A stretch of DNA of 64,000 bases from Rhodothermales bacterium. Its GTDB lineage: Bacteria; Bacteroidota; Rhodothermia; Rhodothermales; Bin80. The stretch lies in assembly GCA_965215475.1 (NCBI GenBank), contig OZ244061.1, forward strand, positions 832,015 through 896,014. Reading direction: 5' to 3'. The translations under genes and the position numbers were made by a program. This document shows positions 7,832 through 50,161 of this stretch, piece after piece. The notes under the pieces were generated by a model. It searched no databases. It was given only the letters and a program-made list of their open reading frames with translations, and was not told the DNA's origin. The first letter of the stretch is position 1. Every line of letters begins with the position of its first letter.

Positions 7832-8848
7832 TTATGCCCTTTCTGTGGGAATGTTGAGACCTAAATTCTCACGTACGTTTGCCCGGATTGATTCGTATTC
7901 ACCAGGGTTTTCTATCAACCAGGTTTTCGCATTATCCCGTCCTTGCCCAATTCGTTCGTTTCCATAACCATACCAAGAACCGCTTTTGGTGATGATCCCA
8001 ATATTCACTGCAAGGTCAACCAACTCTCCTACAGATGAAATCCCTTCCCCATAGATAATGTCAAACTCAGCATTCCGAAACGGTGGTGCAACTTTGTTCT
8101 TCACCACTTTGACACGCGTTCGATTGCCAATGACCTCGGTGGCATTCTTGATCGCACCAATCCGACGAATATCAAGTCTGACTGAGCTGTAGAATTTCAG
8201 TGCTTTTCCACCAGGAGTCGTTTCAGGGTTTCCAAACATCACTCCAATTTTTTCCCGGAGTTGGTTAATGAAAACCACAACAACATTGGATCGATTGATA
8301 ATTCCGGCTAACTTTCTTAGAGCCTGGCTCATCAGGCGGGCTTGCAATCCCACATGACTATCTCCCATATCCCCTTGAATTTCAGCTGCGGGAACCAAGG
8401 CCGCTACGGAGTCAACGACAATAAGATCAAGTGCACCACTTCGAACGAGGGTATCGCAAATATTTAACGCCTGTTCTCCAGTATCGGGCTGTGAGATCAA
8501 TAACTGATCAATATCCACACCCAATTGCTCTGCATAAGATGGATCGAAGGCATGTTCCGCATCGATAAATGCGCATTGTCCTCCCAATTTCTGAGCCTCG
8601 GCAAGACAATGCGTAGCCAATGTGGTCTTCCCCGAAGATTCGGGGCCATAGATTTCAACGATTCGTCCGCGGGGGATCCCTCCCACACCTAGAGCGGCAT
8701 CTAATGCTATAGATCCCGTAGGAATGGCTTCCACCTGTACTGGCGGAGCATCCCCCATTCTCATGATGGAGCCTTTGCCATGTTGTTTCTCAATCTCCTT
8801 GATCGCGAGATTAAGTGCACGAATTTTGGGGGTTTCTTTTGTACTCAT
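7832..8848 (-). CDS. recA: Recombinase RecA
   Basis: 338 aa. Contains Walker [20 protein letters not shown] and [13 protein letters not shown]; canonical RecA throughout. Confidence 0.97.
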
Positions 8849-9047
8849 AATTTCATGATTGAGTTAAGCCGTTTAATGATACAACACTTTGACCGAAGTT
8901 TTTTATCTCTACAAACTACAATTCGAAAAAGAATTCCCCAAAACACTTCGAAGGCAAGCTAGTTCTCCAGAATCGGCACTTAAAATTGCCAGGGGGGAGA
9001 TGCCCTTGTCTAGTTACATCTTATCGAGGAATTCATTTTGCTCATAG

Positions 9048-10016
9048 ATGATAATTTCGTATAGATACATGGACATCAAGCCGTTTATTGTATGCCAGGA
9101 AAATGGAAAACTTACTGTACTTGAGGGTAATCGTCGATTAGCTGCGGTTCGTCTATTCAGGGATCCTGAGTTAAGCAACAAAATATTTGATGCAACCACA
9201 ACTAGGATACGAATCCCAGAAATAACCAAGGATCATAGAGGCACACTCGAGAAGATTTCCGTGTATCGTGTTGATCATCGTAGAGATGCCGATGCATTCA
9301 TTGGATTTAAACATATCAATGGTGCTGTCCGATGGAATTCATATGCGAAGGCCAAATTTGCTACTCGTTGGCATGGAAACAGTAACTTCTCTCTTACTGA
9401 GATAGCAAATCAGGTTGGAGATAGTCATACAACCATAAAACGGATGGTCCATGCAATCTATGTATTAGAACAAGCCAGGAATGAGTCGCTCTATAATATA
9501 GATGATCGCTGGAATCCGCGTTTCAGTTTTTCGCATCTCTACACAGCATTATCACATTCAGAATATAGACGTTTCCTCGGACTTGATTTGCAATGAACAA
9601 ACTATGAACCACAACTAAATCCAATCTCCAAGGACAGGAAAAACCACTTAACTGAATTACTGACATGGATTTATGGATCCAAAAAAGATGACCTACATCC
9701 GGTAATCACGTCACAGAACCCAGACATTAAACATCCAGGAGAAGTATTAAATCACACTGCATCTCTGACAATTCTTAGAGCCGGACGTCCCTTGGAGGAA
9801 GCCTACGAAAGTATGCTGCCCGCCGAGCAGAAGCTAATAGAGTTAATGCTCATTATACGTGCAAAAATCCGTGAAGCATTCTATAATGTAAGGGGGTATG
9901 ATGGTCAAGACACGTATCTCATTGATGTAGCCGAAGAGATCTCTGAAACAGCACAAGCAATACATGAGCGAATGAAAAAAAGAAGGGAAGCTAGTTCTGG
10001 GGAAATGAATGAGTAA
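9048..10016 (+). pseudogene. ParB/Srx-like N-terminal-domain protein, interrupted by an in-frame TGA and apparently 5'-truncated
   Basis: Carries the motif KLTVLEGNRRLAAVRLFRDPEL (ParB-like GxxR box). Codon-by-codon reading shows the frame of 9048-9596 stays open from 9597 to 10016. A single TGA at 9594-9596 is the only interruption. Only ~10 codons precede the ParB box, so the N-terminus looks lost. Confidence 0.6.
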
Positions 10017-38737: not shown

Positions 38738-38915
38738 GAAAAATAGCGATGAGAGAGCTTAGATCCGACCAGAATACGAGCATATCATTACATCAATTGT
38801 CCCAGTTCCTCCAGATTGAGTGTCCTACTCCCAGCAGATTTACTGTCCCGCTTCAAGCGGATTGAGTGTCCCAGTTCACCGGAATACACACATCAACATT
38901 CGGGTAGATAAATCA

Positions 38916-39182: not shown

Positions 39183-40403
39183 CTACAAACTTATCCGATG
39201 TACGTCCTCTATAAAATCTTTCAAAGTTTGCAATTTTGGCCGCATATCCCTGTTATACTTACCCATCAATTTTTGGGGAACCACCAGACGGACGCAAGAT
39301 TCCTGCATTTCTCTGAATTGATTTAGTGAAATTCCTTCCTGAAGTGTCAATAGATGCTTTTCCGGGATGCGTCTAGCCTCATTTAATATCTGTCTCCACC
39401 GGTCCTTACAGGTTGTTTTCACAGCTAACATGCGAAGTTTCTGATAAGGCACGCTCTGATTCCTGTATGCATCAGCTGAGGGGAATAGAAAATCTGGCTT
39501 TCTGCCAGGATCGGATTCCTTATTGTATGAAAAGCTGATGTCTTCCTCAAACCCTTCTTCTCTAAAAATTTCTTTTAGATGAAGTTCAAGTGATCTTCCG
39601 GACCGAGCTTTACGCCGCTGTAAAACTGATTGGGCTACCTCCCTAAATTCTTCCATATTGCTGAAGCCTTGCTCAATCCTTGGGAAATAAAAAGCATTCT
39701 CAATGCTATCATATAGATCTTGTTCACAATCTCGCCGTTCCATTAATCTCCGATCTGGATCCATAGAGGAACCGGGAATTCTTCGCACTGCTTCCGACAT
39801 AACTGTCAAGGGTTCTGGAAAAGATTGAATCCAATTCGGAGGAATCTCATCGGGGTTCACCCCATTTCTTACTGAATGACGATTTTGTAGATCTGGACGA
39901 GCTCTACATGATGAAGAAGATTCTATGATCAATGTTCTTCCTGGCTCAACAGGGCCTATACGGCTCTCAACAAAGATCTCTTCCGATCTATCATGACATA
40001 TCCATAAACGACATTCTTTGACTGCCCCTTGAGTATCAGTGGGGAAAACAAATATAGCCAGAGCCCCTGTATTTTCAGGATCAAGGACAGATGATTTATA
40101 TCCACCAAATCCCGTCAAACGCACCTCATTACGCGTTCCGTCGTGCCACTTATTGTTATACCATATTGCACTGATTTCCCTGTGTTCTTCATGTGAATCT
40201 ATATGGAAATTGAGTATAATGCGTGGATTTTTTTTCTCTACCTTGTTAAGATTCGGGAGTAGGCGTAAAAGGAAATCTCTTGGTATGTAAGGACCTGCTT
40301 GGTGCGTTCTATTGGCAAGTGTATCATTACCCGAGAGACGCTTAACGTACCATGTTGCAACAGAGCATTTATCCATCCAATCCCATAGTTTTTTATTGGA
40401 CAT
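39183..40403 (-). CDS. Type IIE restriction endonuclease, EcoRII-like
   Basis: N-terminal effector domain YVKRLSGNDTLANRTHQAGPYIP (compare EcoRII YIKRLSANDTGATGGHQVGLYIP). The C-terminal catalytic region contains NLRMLAVKTTCKDRWRQILNEA, identical to EcoRII as I remember it. Start chosen at ATG 40403 (406 aa); the ORF is open to 40469. Confidence 0.85.
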   Translation of the reverse strand: MSNKKLWDWMDKCSVATWYVKRLSGNDTLANRTHQAGPYIPRDFLLRLLPNLNKVEKKNPRIILNFHIDSHEEHREISAIWYNNKWHDGTRNEVRLTGFGGYKSSVLDPENTGALAIFVFPTDTQGAVKECRLWICHDRSEEIFVESRIGPVEPGRTLIIESSSSCRARPDLQNRHSVRNGVNPDEIPPNWIQSFPEPLTVMSEAVRRIPGSSMDPDRRLMERRDCEQDLYDSIENAFYFPRIEQGFSNMEEFREVAQSVLQRRKARSGRSLELHLKEIFREEGFEEDISFSYNKESDPGRKPDFLFPSADAYRNQSVPYQKLRMLAVKTTCKDRWRQILNEARRIPEKHLLTLQEGISLNQFREMQESCVRLVVPQKLMGKYNRDMRPKLQTLKDFIEDVHRISL

Positions 40404-40854
40404 TTTCTCTTCCCCTAATTTCTGCATTGTGACTAGCTGTTCTGAGCCAATTTCCAGCCCTACATACAACTTCGTTAATAGGATATTTACCTCTTCCTTT
40501 CAATGCACATTCCCAAACAACTAGGGTTCTCCACCCTTTTTCTCCCAACAATCTACTATTTCTAACATCTCGTTGTACATTTCCTGCAATCTTATTTCTC
40601 CAGAATTCTGCACGGGATTTAGGCCATCGAAACAAGTGACACTCATGTCCGTGCCAGAAGCAACCATTGACAAAAATCACTGCCTTATATCTTGGAAAAA
40701 CCAAATCTGGCGTCCCCGGAAGTCTGCGATCATGCAGGCAATATCGAAACCCAAGCTTATGTAGACCGCGACGTAGAATAAGTTCAGGTTTTGTATCAGA
40801 TCTCTTGATGCTAGACATCATTCGACTTCGAGTTTTCCTGCTAACTATATCCAT
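40393..40854 (-). CDS. vsr: Very-short-patch repair endonuclease
   Basis: 153 aa. Contains TKPELILRRGLHKLGFRY..., PGTPDLVFPRYKAVIFVNGCFWHGH and FWRNKIAGNVQRD; canonical Vsr. Confidence 0.92.
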   Translation of the reverse strand: MDIVSRKTRSRMMSSIKRSDTKPELILRRGLHKLGFRYCLHDRRLPGTPDLVFPRYKAVIFVNGCFWHGHECHLFRWPKSRAEFWRNKIAGNVQRDVRNSRLLGEKGWRTLVVWECALKGRGKYPINEVVCRAGNWLRTASHNAEIRGRENVQ

Positions 40855-40861
40855 CTGATAT

Positions 40862-42079
40862 TCATCTCGACAACGACTCTTTTTTCATCCCTCCAGTACG
40901 GTGCATTTCCAGTTCCACCTGGATATGCGGTTTCAATAATGTAGCAATGGCCCGAACTACCGGGACCACAACCGCATTCCCAAACTGCCTGTATGCTTGC
41001 GTATCAGAAACTGGAATTTCAAATTCAGGTTGCCCCGGTTCGTCAAATCCCATCAGGCGAGCACATTCACGCGGGGTAAGCCTCCTTGGACGATTTTTAT
41101 CCTGCTTAATCAGGATCTCAGATCCATCCTTGTGATATCTAGCTGACAGCGTACGAGCTACATCATTCGGGCTAAACAGCGAGTATCCAAAACCATTACC
41201 AGCCTTACGATGTTTCTCCTTGTAATCCCTAAGGTAACGCCAAAGATGTTTTGTAAGTGTGTATTTGGGATCTACTTCAGGCAATAGAATGTTTTCTAGT
41301 ACGGGCGGCGGCCCACTTGGAACCATCAAATTTTCAAAATTGAACGGAACACTATCCCTGAATCCTAAAATAAAGATTCTTTCACGCTTTTGGGGGACCC
41401 AAGGCGCTGAGTTAATAATACGGATATGTACACTATAACCCAACTCTTTTTCGAGAACATTCATAATGGTACCGAAAGTTCTTCCACCATCATGACGCTG
41501 AAGATGTTTAACATTCTCCAAAAGAAATGCAAAAGGCCGGTGATATTCTAGAATCTTTGCTAGATCGTAAAAAAGCGTACCTTGGGTATCACACAGAAAG
41601 CCATGAGGCTTCCCCAGAGAATTCTTCTTTGAAACACCTGCAAGAGAAAATGGCTGACAAGGAAAGCCCGCCAGCAAAACTTCATGATCGGGGATTCGTT
41701 CCGGTTCTTTGGCAATTGGACGAATATCTCCAATAAATTTATGATCTTTCCTCTCAAGAAAATTGGCAGCATACGTCTGACACGCAAATCGATCCCATTC
41801 AGATGTAAAAACACATATACCTCCAATTTCTTGGAAAGGAATGCGCATACCACCAATTCCCGCAAAAAGATCTATGAAACGGAAAGATCTGTTTTGCTGT
41901 CGACCCTTTATTTCATTAGCTAATCCCTTCATGATCTCAATAACCGGAGATGGGGGGACTGTTTTGTACGACTCATATCGATAAATCGTTCTGACAGATC
42001 TTCCAACAAGACGAGCCGTAGTAGCAATAGAAAGTCCAGTTCTTTTCCGTAATGCTGCAAATTCAGTGTATTCTGGCAT
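40862..42079 (-). CDS. dcm: DNA (cytosine-5) methyltransferase with N-terminal XRE-type HTH
   Basis: HTH LRKRTGLSIATTARLVGRSVRTIYRYE. MTase motifs I FIDLFAGIGG, IV GFPCQPFS, VI LLENV, VIII QKRERIFILGF and X QFGNAVVVPV. Confidence 0.92.
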   Translation of the reverse strand: MPEYTEFAALRKRTGLSIATTARLVGRSVRTIYRYESYKTVPPSPVIEIMKGLANEIKGRQQNRSFRFIDLFAGIGGMRIPFQEIGGICVFTSEWDRFACQTYAANFLERKDHKFIGDIRPIAKEPERIPDHEVLLAGFPCQPFSLAGVSKKNSLGKPHGFLCDTQGTLFYDLAKILEYHRPFAFLLENVKHLQRHDGGRTFGTIMNVLEKELGYSVHIRIINSAPWVPQKRERIFILGFRDSVPFNFENLMVPSGPPPVLENILLPEVDPKYTLTKHLWRYLRDYKEKHRKAGNGFGYSLFSPNDVARTLSARYHKDGSEILIKQDKNRPRRLTPRECARLMGFDEPGQPEFEIPVSDTQAYRQFGNAVVVPVVRAIATLLKPHIQVELEMHRTGGMKKESLSR

Positions 42080-42429
42080 GAAGATGTATCTATCCTTATC
42101 TCAAAGAGAGCTACAATATCGTTTCCTAATGAGCCTCTGACAAAATGTTCTTATAACAAGTTCTGATCCTTTCCAATATAGGCATATCACTAAATACTTG
42201 ATAGCAGCGTCAGAAACTCATCAAGAGCAATCTCATTCCTCATGTTAATCGAGTTTTTAATCCCCGACAACGACAAATCTTCATTTCACATCGTAGTACT
42301 TCACCCATATACTGCTATCTCACGACGATCCCTGACCGAACAATGGATGTTCTTGCCATTTTACTCTACTAAAAATGGAAATGTCAGTTCGCGTGCTTAC
42401 CCGTGTATTTTAATTATGTTATATGCGAG

Positions 42430-42522
42430 GCTCTTGCAAAACCACTGATCCAAGCAGAAAGGATCCCCTCAGGTACTCTCAGAGTTATGTTTGCGCTCAA
42501 GTAAGAGAGGTTTTGCAAGAGC
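42430..42522. repeat. MITE-like palindromic element, copy 2 (perfect 14-bp terminal inverted repeats)
   Basis: GCTCTTGCAAAACC (42430-42443) and GGTTTTGCAAGAGC (42509-42522) are exact reverse complements. The interior matches 21660-21722. The GGCTCTT start resembles ISL3-type IR termini. Confidence 0.7.
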
Positions 42523-42758
42523 ATCATGCTTATAATAAATTGAGAAACTATAAGCATAAAATAAGGTAACCGCTGTGTTATATCTTTGATATACCTAATC
42601 CGCTCTGTGAGCTGTGAGATAGACTCAGACTGTCTGTCATACAATTATTGTTCAGTTCATTGAAATCTTTTAACTTAACGGTGATTCACCAGCTTCCACA
42701 GAATATTGCTTTACTCTAATACATTACATAAGTTATTCTCTGAGAAATGATTGCATAG

Positions 42759-44903
42759 ATGAATCAACTCAAACTGAAAAACCAATTTGATCAAATACCG
42801 ATCCAAGTACATCCTCGCGTCTTTGATGCCTTGGGATCCGATCTAGTTACCAATGACATTGTTGCTGTGATTGAGTTAGTAAAAAATGCCTATGATGCAT
42901 TTGCATGTAATGTTTGGCTGTCTTTCGAACATGATCCTATACAAGGTGACTACTTGGAAATCAAGGATGACGGTCATGGCATGTTAAGGAAAACCATCGA
43001 AAATACATGGTGTACTATAGCTACACCGAATAAACAAAGACATCCTTATGTTGAGAGTGGTGACGGTCACAAGAGGCGTGTAAGTGGTGAAAAAGGCCTC
43101 GGACGGCTCTCGGCTGCACGACTGGGGACACGATTGGATATGCTGACCAAATATCAAGGTAATCCGTGTTGGGAAGTAAAGATTGATTGGCGTATCATAG
43201 CTAGTGGAGACGATATTTCACAGAGTTTTGTGCAACTTCGAGAATTGTCGAATACGCCGCCATTTGAGACAGGCACGCGACTACGCATATTTGAACTGAA
43301 GAGGAAATGGGATAGAAGGCGAAAGGACGATCTCAGAGAGAATCTAGGACGTCTAGTTTCTCCTTATGATTTCAATGATGAATTCAATATCTATTTCTCT
43401 GATTCTCCAGATAAAAAATCCGAATCAATTGTTATTCAGTCACCAAAGTTTTTATCTTATCCAAAATACCGTTTCTATGGAAATGTAGACAAACAAGGAA
43501 ATGTGTGTGGAACATATCAGTTTAGGCCTATCGGACAGAAAATTCAGAAATGTGAAAGTGAAAACATCCAATGGACACATATTCATAGAGGTCTATCCGA
43601 TCCCATCCAAGTTCAACATCAACCTGACCCAGCATCATGTGGCCCCTTCTCATTCGAAATCCGAGCTTGGGATATAGGACCCGACGATCAGGAAGAAATT
43701 GCTACTGGATTCGAGATCAACAAAAAAAATATTCGCCGAGTAATCAGTCACCATAAGGGAATTTCCGTGTATCGCGATAATGTTTTAATGTTACCTAAAA
43801 CTGATAGTGATCGTGATTGGTTAGGGCTTGATCTTCGACGGATAAGCAAAATCGGTCCAAGACTGAGTACAAGCCAGATCGTCGGCTATGTTCAAATATC
43901 AGCGGCTGAAAATCCGAATATTCGAGACACCAGTGACCGTGAACAACTCGCAGATTCTAAAGAAGTAGATGAATTCAAAGCAATCCTAAAAGCCATAATC
44001 CAAAAACTTGAGAGGAAGCGTTCTGAGGATCGTCATACAGATGCACTGGAAAAACCAATTAGCAGCCTATTTGAAGAAATCTCTGCCGATAACCTCCTTG
44101 AAAATATCAGATCTCTGTCAGTAAAGAGTCCAAAAATAGCTGAGATACTGCCTGTTATTACAAAATTCAAGAGTTCACTTGATGAAAGAGTTCATACCAT
44201 CCAACAGCGATTTATCTATTATAGCCGCTTAGCTACCATCGGCTCAATCGCGGAAATGCTCATACATGAAGTTCGTGGCAGAACTACAGTTTTTGGGAGA
44301 TTTATAAAATTTGTCCATAAGAAACTTCTTCCGAGTGCTGATGTCGCGACAGAGATCAAGTACGCCTCCGATGCAACCGATGCTTTGGATCGTTTGGCCG
44401 ATACATTTGCTCCACTAGCTAGTCGACGTTTTCGTCGGCGTCTCAGAAAAACTATTTTGGAGGATCGTATCAATGTCTGTGTTACACTCATGCAAGATGA
44501 AATCACGGCCAAGCAAGTCGACTGTAATATATTGACGTCAACTACACCTGTTGCCGTTGATCCTGGTGAGCTTGATGCTATTCTTCTAAACCTGATCTCG
44601 AACTCTCTCTATTGGCTGTCTGATGTGCCAAAGAATCAGCGGAAAATAGAATTCGTGATTGACCACTCTACTCCCAACCAGCAACGTGTTACCATTAGTT
44701 TATACGATACGGGGCCAGGAGTTGCAAAAGAATACTTGGACAAAGTATTCTGGCCTGGAGTCACTCTAAAACCATCTGGAATTGGTATGGGATTGACTGT
44801 GGCATCTGAACTTGTTGCGTCGTATGATGGACGTATGTACACGAAAGAACTAGGGAAAAAAAACGGTGCAGTTTTTGGTTTTGACTTACCTTTACGCTTG
44901 TAA
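42759..44903 (+). CDS. Dual-GHKL protein: N-terminal MORC/Hsp90-like (HATPase_c_3-type) ATPase module fused to a C-terminal histidine-kinase core (DHp-like H-box + HATPase_c)
   Basis: 714 aa. GHKL no. 1: N-box IELVKNAYDA (res 38-46), DDGHGM (70-75), GEKGLGRLS (110-118). Middle region: GISVYRDNVLMLP...DWLGLDL. HK core: IAEMLIHEVRGRT (His503), N-box LLNLISNSLYW (609-619), G1 LYDTGPGV (648-655), G2 SGIGMGL (673-679). Confidence 0.8.
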   Translation: MNQLKLKNQFDQIPIQVHPRVFDALGSDLVTNDIVAVIELVKNAYDAFACNVWLSFEHDPIQGDYLEIKDDGHGMLRKTIENTWCTIATPNKQRHPYVESGDGHKRRVSGEKGLGRLSAARLGTRLDMLTKYQGNPCWEVKIDWRIIASGDDISQSFVQLRELSNTPPFETGTRLRIFELKRKWDRRRKDDLRENLGRLVSPYDFNDEFNIYFSDSPDKKSESIVIQSPKFLSYPKYRFYGNVDKQGNVCGTYQFRPIGQKIQKCESENIQWTHIHRGLSDPIQVQHQPDPASCGPFSFEIRAWDIGPDDQEEIATGFEINKKNIRRVISHHKGISVYRDNVLMLPKTDSDRDWLGLDLRRISKIGPRLSTSQIVGYVQISAAENPNIRDTSDREQLADSKEVDEFKAILKAIIQKLERKRSEDRHTDALEKPISSLFEEISADNLLENIRSLSVKSPKIAEILPVITKFKSSLDERVHTIQQRFIYYSRLATIGSIAEMLIHEVRGRTTVFGRFIKFVHKKLLPSADVATEIKYASDATDALDRLADTFAPLASRRFRRRLRKTILEDRINVCVTLMQDEITAKQVDCNILTSTTPVAVDPGELDAILLNLISNSLYWLSDVPKNQRKIEFVIDHSTPNQQRVTISLYDTGPGVAKEYLDKVFWPGVTLKPSGIGMGLTVASELVASYDGRMYTKELGKKNGAVFGFDLPLRL

Positions 44904-44906
44904 CCG

Positions 44907-46064
44907 ATGATTTCGACAAACATTGGAATGCTGAAATTGCTTTTTGTTGATGATCGAGAAGAAGATCTAAGACCGATACGAAAATTGATAGAAGGTAAAG
45001 AGAACATGAGTTTCCATCATGTGGATAGTGTGGTCGAAGCGAAAAATGAAATTAAGTCTACGAGACCGGATATAGTAATAATTGACCTTAAATTATCCTC
45101 TCAAGCATCCGATTCAAATTTGGAAGGCAAAAAAGTTGAGGATTTAATCTGGGATAATCATTTCTGTCCAGTAATAATCTACTCCGGGTTTGCAGAAGAT
45201 TATGAATCCAGTGATACAAATCAGCGCAGGAACCACCCCCTCGTTAAAATAGTCCCTAAGGGGAGAGACAGTGAGGATGAAGTATTAAATGCTATTGAAT
45301 CCTTTAGCCAATATTCGCTGGCTATTCAAGAAGTTGCGACAGATGTTTGGTCTGCACGTCAAGAAGCACTCCGAGATGCAGTTCCCCATATTCTTGGGGA
45401 AAGTTTGCATGAAGAGAGTGTTGAAAATGTTAAGATAACGGTTAAGCGCCGAATAGCCAGTATGATGGATAAACCTATCTCAGGTGATACTCCATTGGCT
45501 GCCCAAACCCAATATCTGATTCCTCCAATAGGTAATAACGTAATCTTGGGAGATATCCTTAAAAAGAGGGAGGCGGATTCCGCGGACCCCATATCTTTCC
45601 AAGTCGTTCTTTCACCTTCCTGTGATATGGTTGATTCTGGGAAACGTAAAGCTAAGATTTCTAATGTGCTGGTTGCCAAATGCGACTCACTCAAAACATT
45701 GCTTGAAAGTGCGGGTATGGGAGGTAAAATGAACCCTAAACTGGAAAAACAGATAAAATCACACGTACTCACACCAGGTTTTTTTAAGACCGTAGTTCCT
45801 TTTCCATGTTTTTCTGGACATATCCCGAGTATGGGAGCTAATATGAGGGATTTGGATCTAATTCCCTTAGAGGAGATCGGAACACTCGATTCTGATAAAA
45901 AATATTTGAGAGTCGCTTCTATTGACAGTCCATTTCGAGAATTGATTTCTTGGTCATACCTCCAAGTTGCAGCTCGACCGGGCCTTCCTGATCGAAACTT
46001 TGAATCTTGGATACAGGAAATATCTGATGCATGGAACAATGACCACGATCGTAATACCAAATGA
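44907..46064 (+). CDS. Response-regulator receiver (REC) domain protein with uncharacterised ~250-aa C-terminal domain
   Basis: 385 aa. REC signature residues: LLFVDD (D15/D16), DIVIIDLKL (D60), VIIYSG (S93), LVKIVPKG (K114/K118). No DNA-binding or known enzymatic motif seen after residue ~130. Notable conserved-looking strings: VVLSPSCDM and RVASIDSPFRE. Starts 3 nt after the upstream stop. Confidence 0.75.
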   Translation: MISTNIGMLKLLFVDDREEDLRPIRKLIEGKENMSFHHVDSVVEAKNEIKSTRPDIVIIDLKLSSQASDSNLEGKKVEDLIWDNHFCPVIIYSGFAEDYESSDTNQRRNHPLVKIVPKGRDSEDEVLNAIESFSQYSLAIQEVATDVWSARQEALRDAVPHILGESLHEESVENVKITVKRRIASMMDKPISGDTPLAAQTQYLIPPIGNNVILGDILKKREADSADPISFQVVLSPSCDMVDSGKRKAKISNVLVAKCDSLKTLLESAGMGGKMNPKLEKQIKSHVLTPGFFKTVVPFPCFSGHIPSMGANMRDLDLIPLEEIGTLDSDKKYLRVASIDSPFRELISWSYLQVAARPGLPDRNFESWIQEISDAWNNDHDRNTK

Positions 46065-47113
46065 AAGCTCTGGATTTTTTTTGCGGAGCCGGTGGATTGA
46101 CTCGAGGCCTAATTGATGCTGGCATTGATGTCATTGCCGGATATGACTTAGACGAGAAATGTCGAGCTACCTATGAATACAATAATCCAAACACAAAATT
46201 TGTACATGCAGATATTAGATCCCTGACTTCTGCTGATATATTACTCCGATTCCAATCTCATGATACGGAGGAAGATATTCTGTTCGCCGCATGTGCGCCG
46301 TGTCAGCCGTTCAGTTCACAGCGTAAACCATATACTACGTCTCGGGGTGCTCAATTGCTGAAAGAATTTAGCCGACTAGTAGAATCAATGCAACCCACAT
46401 TCGTGTTGATTGAAAATGTGCCAGGAATGGCTAGAGTTCAAGGATTTAGTACTTACAGGCGATTCCTAAAGACGTTGAAATCAAATGATTACAGATATGA
46501 CTGGAAAGTTCTTGACGCAAAACACTTTGGCGTCCCGCAAAATAGACGACGCTTGGTACTTATAGCAAACAAAAAAGGGCCTATAACATTGCCCCAACCA
46601 ACATTTGGTGAAAATTTACGTCCATTTTCCACTGTTCGTGAAACTATTGATCATTTTCCTCAAATCGGTGCTGGTGAAACACACACACATGTACCTAATC
46701 ATGTAGCGGCCTCCGTTTCACCCTTAAATCTTAATCGACTTCGCAAAACCCCACATGATGGTGGAGATCGCAGAGCATGGCCACAGAGTATTTGGTTGAA
46801 TTGTCATAAAGGGCCTTACTCTGGACATACGGATGCTTACGGGCGTTTATCTTGGGACAAACCTGCACCTACCTTGACGGGAAGATGTAACAGTCTTTCC
46901 AATGGAAGATACGGACATCCCGACCAAGATCGAGCAATATCATTACGGGAAGCCGCTTCCTTGCAGTCCTTTCCAAAAAACTACATCTTCTTTGGATCCA
47001 ACAAACACATTGCTATGCAGATCGGTAATGCAGTTCCTGTGAAACTTGCAAAACGACTCGGCGAACACATACTCAATACTTCAAGAGATCTTGAGCCCAA
47101 TCACCGAACATGA
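46061..47113 (+). CDS. DNA (cytosine-5) methyltransferase (second, unrelated copy)
   Basis: 350 aa. Motifs I LDFFCGAGGLTRG, IV ACAPCQPFS, VI LIENVPGM, VIII PQNRRRLVLIA, IX LREAASLQSFP and X QIGNAVPV. The ATG overlaps the upstream stop (ATGA at 46061-46064). Confidence 0.9.
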   Translation: MKALDFFCGAGGLTRGLIDAGIDVIAGYDLDEKCRATYEYNNPNTKFVHADIRSLTSADILLRFQSHDTEEDILFAACAPCQPFSSQRKPYTTSRGAQLLKEFSRLVESMQPTFVLIENVPGMARVQGFSTYRRFLKTLKSNDYRYDWKVLDAKHFGVPQNRRRLVLIANKKGPITLPQPTFGENLRPFSTVRETIDHFPQIGAGETHTHVPNHVAASVSPLNLNRLRKTPHDGGDRRAWPQSIWLNCHKGPYSGHTDAYGRLSWDKPAPTLTGRCNSLSNGRYGHPDQDRAISLREAASLQSFPKNYIFFGSNKHIAMQIGNAVPVKLAKRLGEHILNTSRDLEPNHRT

Positions 47114-47120
47114 TCTATCC

Positions 47121-47735
47121 CTACCCCGTTGCCGAAGCGAAATTTGTTGCAACCTGATCCCAGTTGACCACATTCCAGAATGCAGCTACATAGTCAGGTC
47201 GACGATTCTGATAATTGAGATAATAGGCATGCTCCCATACATCCAGACCAAGAACAGGAGTGTGTCCCTCCATATAAGGGCTGTCTTGATTTGCAGTGGA
47301 ATACACATGAATTGCACCTGCAGAATCAACAACTAACCAAGCCCATCCACTACCGAACCGTGTTGCAGCAGCTGCAGAGAATTTTGCCTTGAAATCCTCA
47401 AATGATCCAAATGCGCGGTCAATGGCAGCCGCCAAAGTACCTGACGGAGCACCACCACCGGCTGAGCTAAGAATCGTCCAGAAGAGAGTATGGTTCGCAA
47501 AACCGCCTCCATTATTGCGTACCGCTCCCTGAATCTCCTCAGGCAAATCTGAAATTCCACGTAAGAGCTCTTCTATCGTCTTTGACTGGAGACTCGCATG
47601 CCCCGCTAATGCCTTGTTCAAGTTCATCGTATAAGCTTGATGATGCTTTCCATGGTGAATCTCCATGGTTCTCTGGTCAATATAGGGTTCCAGCGCACTA
47701 TGTGTATAGGGAAGATCGGGGAGTTCAAAAGCCAT
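47121..47735 (-). CDS. sodA: Superoxide dismutase, Mn-type by sequence signatures
   Basis: 204 aa. Contains [48 protein letters not shown] and DVWEHAYY. Confidence 0.9.
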
Positions 47736-47819
47736 TATTATAGTTTTGGTAAGTTGAAGAGAAACGTACCTCGAACATCACAAATTGTTCGAGAATACGA
47801 ATGAATAAATGGAAATTGT

Positions 47820-48353
47820 TCAGGAACGGACATTGATCAATTTTTCATAATCCGCTTCTGTCAAACTTCCATCGGAACGTAAACGATCAAGTGCACGTGA
47901 AACTGCAGCCCAATCCGTCTCCTTCAAATTGGAGGAATCAGGGAGTAACATCACGTTTCGAAGGAATTCTTCAATATACTCAGCACTCCGGGGATGCTTC
48001 GAAAGATCCAGTTTTACGGAAAAGGTTGCCCTCCCCCGATTCACTTCCATGATGATATGAGTTCCTCGAAGCTTTGATCGACTAGACTCAACAAAAACAA
48101 TATCCCTGTAATGTATCGTCTGGGGAGATTCCAAGTCTGAGTTTTGAAAAATCAGTTGATCTTCCAGAAATACGACCCCATCCTTGCCATTGCCCAAAAA
48201 CGTCCCATCATACAGAGCAAGAATATCCTCTGGGTGCGTATCCTTTGCATAATCACGGGTTGCCCCTCGAAGCCTTTTTGAAGGGATTTCCGGGGCAACA
48301 TATAACCCGATCTTCGGTGCATGTGGTAAAAGATTCTTGACCAGCGATCTCAT
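47820..48353 (-). CDS. Hypothetical protein (177 aa)
   Basis: Clean ORF in the intergenic slot between sodA and nuoN. No motif recognised. Confidence 0.4.
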   Translation of the reverse strand: MRSLVKNLLPHAPKIGLYVAPEIPSKRLRGATRDYAKDTHPEDILALYDGTFLGNGKDGVVFLEDQLIFQNSDLESPQTIHYRDIVFVESSRSKLRGTHIIMEVNRGRATFSVKLDLSKHPRSAEYIEEFLRNVMLLPDSSNLKETDWAAVSRALDRLRSDGSLTEADYEKLINVRS

Positions 48354-48362
48354 ATTCAGTCG

Positions 48363-49862
48363 CTACGGTAGAGTTACAAGTATATCCTGCACGAAAAAGG
48401 ACAGCGTCAGATCCCGAATCCCTGGCACAAAACCAATTCCCAATAATAAGACCGCACATGCCACAAGCACAATGGAAGAAGATTGAGGAATCGGAAACGA
48501 GCCCGATTGGACAACTGGTTCTGCTTCGGTAGCAGGTTTCATCCAGAATACATACAGTACTCGAAGATAATAATAGCCCGAAAAAACACTGGCTAATACA
48601 CCAACGATTGCCAGCCATGTCAGACCCGCATTGATCGCTGGCGCAAAGACTGCTAGTTTTCCGAAGAACCCTCCCAGGGGAGGAAACCCCGTTAGACTAA
48701 ACATGAATACCCCCATTGTAATCCCGACCAGGGGTCTCTTGAAACCAATCCCTGCTAACGAGTCAAGAGTTTGCACACGCCCCTCTTTCTCATCCCATTC
48801 CAATAAAGCAATTGCACCAAAGGCCCCGATATTCATGAGGGCATAAATCAACAGGTAATAAACTGCTCCCGCATAGGCTTCTCCAGTTCCCGCGGCAAGT
48901 GCAATCAGTACATACCCTGCATGTGCAATGGAAGAGTACGCAAGCATCCTCTTCACATTGTCTTGATTCAGTGCAAGAAGATTTCCAAATACGACCGTGA
49001 CGAGTGCAACGAGTGCCAGTGCTAATTGCCAATCTGCCCCCCCAAGTTCTAGGGTTCCAATGCCATGATAAAGCACAAGTACCAGAGCTGCAAAGGCAGA
49101 AGCTTTGGACGCAGTCGTCATGAATCCGGTCAGGGGTGTCGGAGCCCCCTGATAGACATCCGGGATCCACATATGGAAAGGAACGGCCCCCACCTTAAAC
49201 ATAAATCCAACCAGAAATAATGCGACCCCGACCCAGAATAATGGACGTAGTTCACTCATAGAATACCCTATCGCCATCTCCATAAAATACATCGTTCCAG
49301 TGGAGCCATAGATGAGCGCAATTCCATAAAGAAAAAATCCCGTTGAAAATGCTCCAAGCAAGAAATACTTGAGTGCGCTTTCTAGAGCACCTTCATCACT
49401 GCGAACAATACCAGTCAGGATATAGAGGGCAATTGACATGGTTTCTAGGCCAACAAAAACCGTCACCATATTGTTGGCAGTCCCCAAAAGTAGCATCCCA
49501 CTGGTCGCAAACAGCATCAGTGCATAGATCTCCCCGTAACTCCTACGAATTCCCTTCAGGTATGGAACGGAGAGAATGATTGAGAACAGAGCACTCACTA
49601 AAATAATTATGCTGATAAATGAAGCCGATCCTCCGGTCTGGATAAGTGAGAAAAAAACGGTCGAAGATGGATCAGACACCTTGAATAACTCCAAAATGGT
49701 CGCAGCCGTCACCGACAATCCCGCAACCCAGGGTAACTCAGGAGCATCATTGCGGAAAATATCCCATACAATGACAATCACACCAACCAGTGAAAGCCAG
49801 AGGATTGACGCGCCTCCGGCTAAGTCCACCAAAATGGTATCAAACGCGGATGAAATCTCCAT
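48363..49862 (-). CDS. nuoN: NADH-quinone oxidoreductase subunit N
   Basis: 499 aa, polytopic, Mrp-antiporter-like. Last gene of the J-K-L-M-N series. Confidence 0.85.
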   Translation of the reverse strand: MEISSAFDTILVDLAGGASILWLSLVGVIVIVWDIFRNDAPELPWVAGLSVTAATILELFKVSDPSSTVFFSLIQTGGSASFISIIILVSALFSIILSVPYLKGIRRSYGEIYALMLFATSGMLLLGTANNMVTVFVGLETMSIALYILTGIVRSDEGALESALKYFLLGAFSTGFFLYGIALIYGSTGTMYFMEMAIGYSMSELRPLFWVGVALFLVGFMFKVGAVPFHMWIPDVYQGAPTPLTGFMTTASKASAFAALVLVLYHGIGTLELGGADWQLALALVALVTVVFGNLLALNQDNVKRMLAYSSIAHAGYVLIALAAGTGEAYAGAVYYLLIYALMNIGAFGAIALLEWDEKEGRVQTLDSLAGIGFKRPLVGITMGVFMFSLTGFPPLGGFFGKLAVFAPAINAGLTWLAIVGVLASVFSGYYYLRVLYVFWMKPATEAEPVVQSGSFPIPQSSSIVLVACAVLLLGIGFVPGIRDLTLSFFVQDILVTLP

Positions 49863-49867
49863 CGAGG

Positions 49868-50161
49868 TTACGTACCAAAGACCCGATCAATGGTCCGCGC
49901 TAGAACTACATCCAACTGGGTAACCCGATTCCCCGCAGTATGCGTTGTAAGATCAACCGTGACCTGATTATACACGTTATATAAAATAGGGTGATGATCT
50001 AGAGCCTGAGCATGGAAGCCGATATGCACGATAAATGCTACCGCTTCCTGGAAATCTGCAAACTTAAATGTCCTAGATAGCCTGTGATCCTGATACTCCC
50101 ATTTATCCAATGACATGAGAGCGTCATTCAATGTTTTTTGATCCAGTGGTTCACGATTCAT
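49868..50161 (-). CDS. phhB: Pterin-4-alpha-carbinolamine dehydratase
   Basis: LSRTFKFADFQEAVAFIVHIGFHAQALDHHPILYNVYNQVTVDLTTH is the PCD/DCoH signature. Start chosen at ATG 50161 to avoid overlap with the upstream gene; the ORF is open to 50215. Confidence 0.8.
   Translation of the reverse strand: MNREPLDQKTLNDALMSLDKWEYQDHRLSRTFKFADFQEAVAFIVHIGFHAQALDHHPILYNVYNQVTVDLTTHTAGNRVTQLDVVLARTIDRVFGT

Follow-up and report, generated by a model that had tools for sequence, protein, structure and literature searches.

Organization of the locus

The 64,000-nucleotide stretch analyzed here (hereafter the window; contig OZ244061.1 of the Rhodothermales bacterium assembly GCA_965215475.1, positions 832,015 to 896,014) carries three adjoining forward-strand genes that we call g1, g2 and g3. 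g1 (42759–44903, 714 aa) encodes a predicted sensor histidine kinase with two GHKL ATP-binding domains, g2 (44907–46064, 385 aa) a receiver protein with a large output domain, and g3 (46061–47113, 350 aa) a predicted C5 cytosine DNA methyltransferase. Comparative sequence evidence indicates that g1, g2 and g3 are one horizontally mobile cassette, the family of which usually comprises three to four genes: a C5 methyltransferase, often a Vsr, g1 and g2.

Open reading frame (ORF) calls recovered the three genes at exactly the coordinates proposed by an earlier sequence-only reading of the window, together with the junctions that it described; g1 and g2 are separated by a 3-nt spacer (TAA-ccg-ATG), and g2 and g3 share an ATGA overlap. 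The co-transcription and translational coupling deduced from this arrangement are plausible, as a 4-nt overlap is the commonest g1–g2 and g2–g3 junction across the 80 related loci described below. The g1 motifs quoted in that reading are real and invariant in an alignment of 42 homologues, and its three assignments, a dual-GHKL kinase, a receiver with an intact phospho-acceptor and a C5 methyltransferase, are borne out by Pfam, profile searches, structural models and residue conservation. It had also seen no PD-(D/E)xK, HNH, PLD or GIY-YIG motif in g1 or g2, and domain searches against Pfam, NCBIfam and PADLOC likewise detected none of these nuclease domains in either protein.

A dual-GHKL sensor kinase

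From its domain content, g1 is predicted to be a soluble, cytoplasmic sensor histidine kinase, one half of which is a MutL/paraMORC-type GHKL module, with both ATP sites intact. The N-terminal GHKL ATP-binding domain (residues 35–162, 42861–43244) matches Pfam HATPase_c_3 with an expectation value (E) of 1e-19, and a profile built from the 42 g1 homologues matched MutL over the same domain (E 5e-6). The histidine-kinase core, made up of the DHp and the catalytic ATP-binding domain (residues 475–713, 44181–44897), was recognized when this profile was searched against the PDB, where ThkA, ZraS and FixL matched positions 471–716 with E of 1e-32 to 1e-30; Pfam HATPase_c covers residues 601–713 (E 1e-14). 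In the 42-homologue alignment, which includes the plasmid relatives described below at 26–30% identity, the motifs of the first ATPase (E39, N43, D70xGxG74 and G110xKGxGR116) and the residues of the kinase (H503, N611/N615, D650xGxG654 and G674xGxG678) are invariant. H503, encoded at 44265–44267, lies in the DHp helix.

Between the two ATPase modules, the middle region (residues 163–470, 43245–44168) holds the best-conserved block of the protein at about residues 286–400, marked by the motifs GISVYRD...DWLGLDLRR...DTSDRE and by a sliding-window identity of 0.6–0.85 within clades. Eleven positions of this region, G334, Y338, R339, P346, D353, W354, R361, Q373, G376, S392 and R394, are invariant in the alignment, and Pfam and PDB sequence searches with residues 163–470 matched nothing. 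The N-terminus of g1 gave a PADLOC REase_II match, and residues 16–216, and these residues only, match the NCBIfam model for the N-terminus of BbrUII/HgiDII restriction enzymes (NF050001; E 1.5e-23, 83 bits against a cut-off of 550).

A receiver joined to an output domain of predicted toxin-like fold

The full-length AlphaFold model of g2 (predicted local distance difference test score, pLDDT, 86.6; predicted template modeling score, pTM, 0.79) consists of a receiver, a long helix and a mixed output domain spanning residues 169–385. The receiver (residues 9–120, 44931–45266) adopts a (beta-alpha)5 fold in the model and retrieved receiver domains in Foldseek with E of 1e-5 to 1e-7; by sequence, the Pfam Response_reg match is sub-threshold (25.5 bits against a cut-off of 30.2). 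The modeled helix at residues 122–163 (45270–45395) links the receiver to the output domain, which we delimit at residues 165–385 (45399–46061). Residue conservation was assessed in 128 diverse homologues. The phospho-acceptor D60 (codon 45084–45086) and the S/T at position 93 are present in all 128, K118 in 125 and D16 in 123.

Invariance in g2 extends well beyond the receiver. Besides D60, the residues C239, D240, P342 and P361 are found in every homologue, with the Cys-Asp pair encoded at 45621–45626, and R181, Y203, P206, D216, S238, C259, S338, D340, S341, F343, R344, E345, R357 and G359 are near-invariant; the conserved features of the output domain also include RR181-182 and SxDSPFRE338-345. 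A Cys-Asp pair accompanied by about 20 near-invariant polar residues is the pattern that would be expected of an active or ligand-binding site. Pfam detected no regulatory or DNA-binding output domain in the 128 members. A profile of residues 165–385 retrieved 973 cluster representatives (50% identity) at E up to 1e-3, and in the best 150 of these the domain sits at about residues 155–370 of proteins of about 370 aa, behind a receiver; the shorter proteins among the same 150 look like fragments. Judged from these matches, the output domain is always fused to a receiver, its obligate partner.

The output domain modeled on its own (pLDDT 78) resembles a small toxin barrel. Its top 50 Foldseek matches in the PDB are all MazF/PemK/Kid/CcdB toxins plus CptN, the best with E of 1.8e-3, at Foldseek probabilities of 0.44 for CptN and 0.77–1.00 for the other toxins and target-normalized template modeling (TM) scores of 0.55–0.65. 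An independent library, BFVD, returned PemK-like proteins as top matches (E 3e-4). The similarity covers residues of about 205–352, where the order in the model is beta1-beta2-helix-beta3-[helical insert]-beta4-beta5-beta6-helix, which we take to be that of MazF. The g2 output domain shares with these toxins the predicted barrel and the succession of its strands and helices, but is twice as large, bears helical insertions, has no profile similarity to MazF or CcdB, and does not conserve the catalytic Arg/Thr pair of MazF. We know of no invariant Cys-Asp pair in MazF or CcdB. MazF and CcdB belong to toxin-antitoxin systems; g2 has no antitoxin gene beside it, and control would come through the fused receiver. 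The models thus argue for a toxin-like fold and not for a MazF enzyme.

A catalytic equivalence with MazF had seemed possible from the resemblance by eye of the g2 segments GDIL...FRVVLTPSCD and VLVAKCxS to GDLIWVDF...RPAVVLSP and VPCTT of MazF. It was ruled out, as hhalign against MazF and ChpB gave a probability of 0.1% and aligned another segment, and the arginine expected at position 232 is not conserved. In the window, this codon of the FRVVLTPSCD strand (44907 + 231 × 3) is CAA and encodes Q232; the sister genome described below also has Gln. The notion that the output domain is a pseudo-dimer of two barrels arisen by internal duplication was likewise dropped, hhalign of the two halves having given no signal.

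The methyltransferase and sequence specificity

g3 has the hallmarks of a full C5 cytosine DNA methyltransferase. It matches Pfam DNA_methylase (PF00145, E 7e-59) and NCBIfam TIGR00675, carries motif I (FFCGAGG, residues 6–12), the catalytic C81 in PCQ and ENV at 118–120, and retrieved DNMT1, M.HaeIII and M.HhaI from the PDB. The methyltransferases of related cassettes fall into at least three classes with divergent target-recognition regions; identity between classes is 0.07–0.4 over most of the region and mostly 0.4–0.66 within a class.

A segment of g1 or g2 that tracks this specificity was sought and none stood out clearly, members of different classes being about as similar as members of one class along both proteins. 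The identity of g1 follows the core of the methyltransferase (0.38) slightly better than its recognition region (0.29). Neither g1 nor g2 clearly bears the marks of a separate sequence reader that would match the methyltransferase, which favors the methyltransferase itself as the sequence reader, or as the object that is monitored, over a reading site in g1.

Conservation and mobility of the cassette

Scanning one genome per species with two g2 peptide patterns yielded 115 relatives, of which 80 loci were kept. They derive nearly all from metagenome-assembled genomes and span more than 12 phyla, with representatives among the Rhodothermales, Dehalococcoidia, Planctomycetota, Nitrospirales, Desulfobacterota, Acidobacteriota, Spirochaetota, Gemmatimonadota, Alpha- and Gammaproteobacteria, Ignavibacteriota, Coriobacteriia and others. 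Every one of the 80 loci has a g1 homologue (40–56% full-length identity) immediately upstream of g2 in the same orientation, and a C5 methyltransferase is part of the cassette in 76. The unit therefore held where the sequence-only reading had allowed that the trio might fall apart in other genomes. The methyltransferase is usually directly downstream of g2 and 50–66% identical to g3; in about one-fifth of the loci it lies upstream instead and is 35–38% identical. Vsr belongs to 45 of the 80 cassettes, most often directly upstream of g1. Divergence of g1 and g2 is tightly correlated (Spearman rho 0.83), and that of either with the methyltransferase loosely so (0.31–0.36).

No fifth conserved gene, such as a nuclease or an antitoxin, was found, the largest cluster of flanking ORFs being present in only 12 of the 80 loci, and none of the loci has a small conserved neighbor that might be a candidate antitoxin. 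Since the cassette encodes no recognizable restriction nuclease and has no further conserved member, g1 and g2 stand where an ordinary C5-methyltransferase/Vsr restriction-modification system has its restriction enzyme. The 118 flanking ORFs that we sampled are housekeeping genes, transposases, integrases and scattered defense genes (type I restriction-modification, GajB-like helicases, AbiE and SoFic). Two loci (L014:10292-12760 and L037:583-3435) have a second, different GHKL gene of the HATPase_c_3-like kind near the cassette, which suggests that paraMORC-type systems cluster together.

Distant relatives of the kinase/receiver pair are plasmid-borne in Enterobacter mori, Campylobacter coli and Acaryochloris (n = 3). 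Their kinases align with g1 over the full length at 26–29% identity, and their receiver proteins, at 21–24% identity to g2, keep the PSCD, SPF and RxGxP motifs of the output domain. The pair adjoins a cytosine methyltransferase on Acaryochloris marina pREB1 and on the conjugative Campylobacter coli plasmid. No complete Escherichia coli genome matched the Enterobacter mori pair at the DNA level. On the Campylobacter plasmid (pCCDM224L, 39771–44224), dcm is convergent with the pair, and VapD, HicAB and an AAA ATPase lie beside it; plasmids like pCCDM224L are conjugative and come from food and clinical Campylobacter isolates. Campylobacter would be a tractable host in which to study the pair.

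The window cassette has a counterpart in a sister genome (L086) with 98% nucleotide identity to window positions 42114–50000. There, g2 (8001–9160) is frameshifted near residue 293 and split into ORFs of 296 and 73 aa, and both g1 (714 aa) and g3 (350 aa) are intact. The effector gene thus appears to be the first to decay, which fits the pattern expected of a costly effector.

Relation to described systems

The sequence-only reading had presented the cassette as an undescribed system. The part of this claim that survives is that no named PADLOC v2 system covers g1 or g2; the architecture and its linkage to C5 methyltransferases and Vsr were already described in 2021. Starting from Pectobacterium and working by computation only, Bellieny-Rabelo, Pretorius and Moleleki reported "HK-like" genes next to "RR-like" genes (PMC8011034). 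Their HK-like proteins consist of HATPase_c_3, a His-containing DHp (HEF_HK, PF19191) and HATPase_c, and their RR-like proteins of Response_reg_2 (PF19192) with no other known domain; the two were linked in 91.6% of cases in 644 regions from 628 strains, regions in which C5 methyltransferases, Vsr and type II restriction-modification domains including EcoRII-C were over-represented (PMC8011034). The authors traced the HK-like family back to the paraMORC ATPases (Iyer et al. 2008) and speculated that the pairs play a regulatory role linked to restriction-modification (PMC8011034).

The correspondence is close. The HK-like proteins have the same soluble kinase architecture as g1, in whose homologues H503 is invariant, and the RR-like proteins, like g2, are encoded adjacently and combine a receiver (Asp, acidic pair, Thr/Ser and Lys) with no known output domain. 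The neighborhood is also shared, given the methyltransferase and Vsr frequencies reported above and the EcoRII cassette that adjoins in the window. The order differs, in that PMC8011034 places the methyltransferase mostly upstream and Vsr downstream, whereas in the present loci g2 is mostly followed by the methyltransferase and g1 preceded by Vsr. PF19191 and PF19192 matched neither the window proteins (E up to 10) nor the three plasmid pairs or the 128 relatives, in searches of a Pfam copy whose inclusion of these two models was not established; the window protein and the 128 relatives match PF00072 weakly. On architecture and context, and leaving strict hidden Markov model membership aside, we file the window cassette as the same kind of element as those of PMC8011034. 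That paper gave the output domain neither a fold nor a role. New here are the fusion of the output domain to the receiver, its Cys-Asp pair, its predicted toxin-like fold, the missing specificity segment and the apparent decay of g2 in the sister genome.

Any view that His-Asp signaling has no precedent in defense has been overtaken by Detocs, a validated defensive two-component system made up of the DtcA kinase, the DtcB buffer receiver and the DtcC receiver-PNP effector, in which mutation of the His and the Asp abolishes defense (10.1101/2023.01.24.525353). Detocs is, by analogy, the best mechanistic counterpart of the cassette; as we propose for g2, a toxic effector replaces the DNA-binding output of a response regulator. 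The two differ in their parts. In Detocs the sensor is of the TPR type, a third receiver stands alone, the effector is an ATP nucleosidase and there is no methyltransferase, whereas the window cassette combines a GHKL sensor with an obligate C5 methyltransferase and lacks a buffer receiver. The cassette is not a Detocs member, with no PADLOC Detocs match, no third receiver gene and an output domain that is not a PNP.

Cytosine methylases and Vsr are also the operon partners of paraMORCs (Iyer, Abhiman & Aravind 2008, PMC2292703). paraMORC and MORC proteins share with g1 an N-terminal MutL-like GHKL domain with intact ATP motifs. The described paraMORCs carry or adjoin helicases, restriction-endonuclease (RE)-fold, HNH or TIR modules; g1, by contrast, devotes its C-terminal half to a histidine-kinase core and is partnered by a receiver protein. 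Of the two components of a type II restriction-modification system, the methyltransferase is present, and no nuclease domain was detected in g1, g2 or conserved neighbors. Protein phosphorylation and DNA methylation also meet within one defense locus in Pgl/BREX type 2, where the kinase, PglW, is of the Ser/Thr type, the methylase, PglX, modifies N6 of adenine, and PglY and PglZ are required. This analogy, drawn in the sequence-only reading, is a loose one, and the cassette proteins had no PADLOC match to any BREX or Pgl model. WonAB, which we also considered, is an ABC-ATPase/PD-(D/E)xK system and unrelated (PMC12137116). DefensePredictor contains an unvalidated predicted system with HATPase and REC components, which may or may not belong to the present family (PMC13092281).

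Proposed mechanism and alternative explanations

Gene structure, domain content, intact catalytic and phospho-acceptor residues, conservation of the cassette, fusion of receiver and output domain and fold similarity were obtained directly, and from them a model can be put forward. We tentatively favor, at somewhat short of an even chance, a restriction-modification-like unit of defense or addiction whose restriction step has given way to a His-Asp relay, by which an effector of toxin fold is switched on. The methyltransferase would methylate host DNA, and Vsr, where present, would repair the T:G mismatches left by 5-methylcytosine deamination, limiting the mutational cost. The GHKL half of g1 would act on DNA as an ATP-driven, dimerizing clamp in the manner of MutL and MORC, and would report a DNA or methylation-related state to the kinase core, possibly with the methyltransferase as sequence reader. 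This report would control autophosphorylation of H503, from which the phosphoryl group would pass to D60 of g2; the phosphorylated receiver may then free or dimerize the toxin-fold output domain, leading to cell arrest or to attack on nucleic acids. The nature of the signal, the direction in which control runs, the effector's chemistry and its target, and a role in defense or addiction are all inferred. Detocs provides a precedent for the gating of a toxic effector by a His-Asp relay in phage defense, and the statistics of PMC8011034 document the association with restriction-modification genes. The sequence-only reading had sketched a similar chain, from self-marking by the methyltransferase through sensing by the MORC-like module to phosphotransfer and effector activation; it is a reasonable hypothesis still, and the part that did not appear is the expected segment of g1 or g2 that tracks the recognition region.

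A more specific form of this model, which we regard as possible though doubtful, is a new class of methylation-based immunity without DNA cutting, in which the methyltransferase reads the sequence, the clamp triggers His autophosphorylation, and a receiver-gated enzyme of MazF/CcdB fold, with a novel Cys-Asp active site, shuts the cell down. Its trigger could be either an unmethylated target that has been engaged or a methyltransferase that has been disabled.

DNA cutting is retained in a different account, by which g1 and g2 form a phosphorylation-gated restriction endonuclease, with a nuclease of unrecognized type in the g2 output domain or the g1 middle region; the cassette would then be a genuine restriction-modification system, cutting unmethylated DNA instead of arresting the cell. 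The gene context is exactly that of type II C5-methyltransferase/Vsr systems and contains no other nuclease, and the g1 N-terminus is homologous to the BbrUII/HgiDII restriction-enzyme family. Candidate residues can also be named: D216, D240, D340 and E345 of g2, together with R344 and R357, are invariant or near-invariant and could bind metal and DNA, and the g1 middle region has conserved D353, R361, D393 and E395. We nevertheless judge this account unlikely, if a serious contender, as no nuclease family in Pfam, NCBIfam or PADLOC matched, the structural matches are to RNA-cutting or gyrase-poisoning toxins and not to DNA endonucleases, and no specificity segment co-varies with methyltransferase class. 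An outcome of post-segregational killing or guarding is envisaged if the cassette does not sense invader DNA and is instead a selfish addiction or guard module, which overlaps in its mechanics with the favored unit. The kinase would monitor the methyltransferase, or the state of host methylation or very-short-patch (VSP) repair, and the toxin would fire upon loss, dilution or inhibition of the methyltransferase; the PrrC anticodon nuclease, which accompanies EcoprrI, is an example of such guarding. Under this account neither g1 nor g2 has to read sequence by itself, in keeping with the missing co-variation with the recognition region, and the slightly closer tracking of the methyltransferase core by g1 (0.38 against 0.29), the tight coupling of the methyltransferase through the ATGA overlap, the carriage on conjugative plasmids, where addiction modules are common, and the early loss of the effector in the sister strain all point the same way. 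A MutL–Vsr interaction, given as known in PMC2292703, would be pertinent as well, Vsr being often directly upstream of g1. Yet contact of g1 with the methyltransferase or with Vsr is conjectural, methyltransferases of about 37% identity have been swapped into the cassette and any specific interface would have to tolerate them, and 35 of the 80 cassettes have no Vsr, so that we consider an addiction or guard module rather improbable as a full account.

The authors of the sole paper on the family proposed regulation (PMC8011034), and g1 and g2 might be ordinary two-component regulators that tune neighboring restriction-modification genes, the output domain serving as a non-toxic module for regulation or binding. 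Regulation is what most receiver proteins do, and small CcdB/MazF-like barrels could act as binding modules. Such a role would leave several features unaccounted for: none of the 128 members has a DNA-binding or regulatory output domain, the invariant Cys-Asp pair and the many invariant polar residues would rather point to catalysis, the kinase has a DNA-enzyme-type ATPase in place of a conventional signal-input domain, and mobility of the pair and its methyltransferase across phyla is rare for regulators of host genes. It has, in our estimation, a slim chance of being correct. That the genes are merely chance neighbors in a variable slot might be entertained from the unrelated cargo that the same slot carries in related genomes; the identical order and strand in all 80 loci, which span more than 12 phyla, and on plasmids, refute it and leave it a vanishingly small probability.

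The relay-controlled toxin that we favor has several observations to contend with. The toxin fold rests on predicted models with modest E of 1.8e-3 and 3e-4 and a TM score of about 0.6 over the smaller partner only. Membership in the MazF family received an hhalign probability of 0.1%, Pfam gave no PemK or CcdB match in 23 plus 128 members at lax thresholds, and the position once equated with the catalytic Arg of MazF (R232) is R in just 87 of 128 homologues. For sequence sensing, identity of g1 and g2 between methyltransferase classes is about the same as within a class along their whole length, and the partial correlations of g1 and g2 with recognition-region identity, calculated without a proper null, are weak (at most 0.38). 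Defense genes are no more than sporadic among the 118 flanking ORFs, a sample that has no control set, and we found no experimental test of any family member in the literature.

The scale of the family, with its 973 output-domain representatives at 50% identity, its spread over more than 12 phyla and its plasmid relatives, gives these questions some weight. If the relay model is true, the cassette joins two subjects hitherto investigated separately, self/non-self marking by DNA methylation and the control of toxic effectors by a His-Asp phosphorelay, for which Detocs is the example, and in it a bacterial MORC-like ATPase converts DNA state into a signal and not into cleavage, which bears on how eukaryotic MORCs read epigenetic marks. 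Should the form of the model without DNA cutting be right, a phosphorelay-triggered abortive-infection toxin would serve as the restriction arm of what is otherwise a restriction-modification system. The toxin fold, the Cys-Asp pair and the missing specificity segment make the gene-neighborhood observation of 2021 testable by mutants and assays.

Neighboring features and the variable slot

Divergent from the cassette lies a separate EcoRII-type restriction-modification cassette (39183–42079, reverse strand), identified by Pfam and PADLOC and composed of Dcm (40862–42079), Vsr (40393–40854) and EcoRII (39183–40469). The position of the g1–g2–g3 operon next to it, between a glycosyltransferase and sodA, had been noted in the sequence-only reading, and the outer flanks of the island are indeed an MptA_B-family glycosyltransferase and an Fe/Mn superoxide dismutase (sodA). 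The impression that the segment is AT-richer was also right, the GC content being 41.7% for the island and 47.1% for the remainder of the window. The Vsr of this cassette is the sole Vsr close to g1–g2–g3 in the window. The EcoRII system lies outside the conserved cassette, as an EcoRII homologue occurs near it in only one of the 80 loci (L006). Pfam places an N-terminal HTH_31/Xre-type helix-turn-helix at residues 6–48 of Dcm, a putative controller domain joined to the methyltransferase.

The 679-bp stretch that separates the divergent dcm and g1 (42080–42758) is the presumed promoter site of both cassettes. It contains a 20-nt inverted repeat (42427–42446 and 42506–42525, 90% complementary, 59-nt spacer), which could be an operator or an RNA structure. 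Promoter and terminator scans returned consensus-level promoter matches only, no commoner than in shuffled sequences; the sigma-70 consensus is of little use in this Bacteroidota-like host.

The sister genome has no counterpart to about 1.9 kb of the window (40177–42114), comprising the start of EcoRII and all of Vsr and Dcm, and its EcoRII is a 336-aa remnant; the neighboring EcoRII system has therefore been lost there as a whole. Proteins of the window cassette are present in two contigs only, against 18 members, named Rhodothermaceae or Bacteroidota, in the cluster of the adjacent SodA. In related genomes (L087:10664-20615 and L088:10664-17082), the slot between sodA and the MptA_B glycosyltransferase holds other cargo, namely a Vgb_lyase-like gene, an fn3-rich secreted protein, DDE transposases and a reverse transcriptase. 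By these comparisons the slot is a variable integration hotspot, and the cassette is accessory.

A 23-nt unit (TGTCC...GATTGAGTGTCC) stands in three tandem copies (38798–38871) between the glycosyltransferase and EcoRII, on the outer margin of the island. The alignment with the sister genome is interrupted exactly at this repeat (38825/38860), which suggests a difference in copy number between the two genomes.

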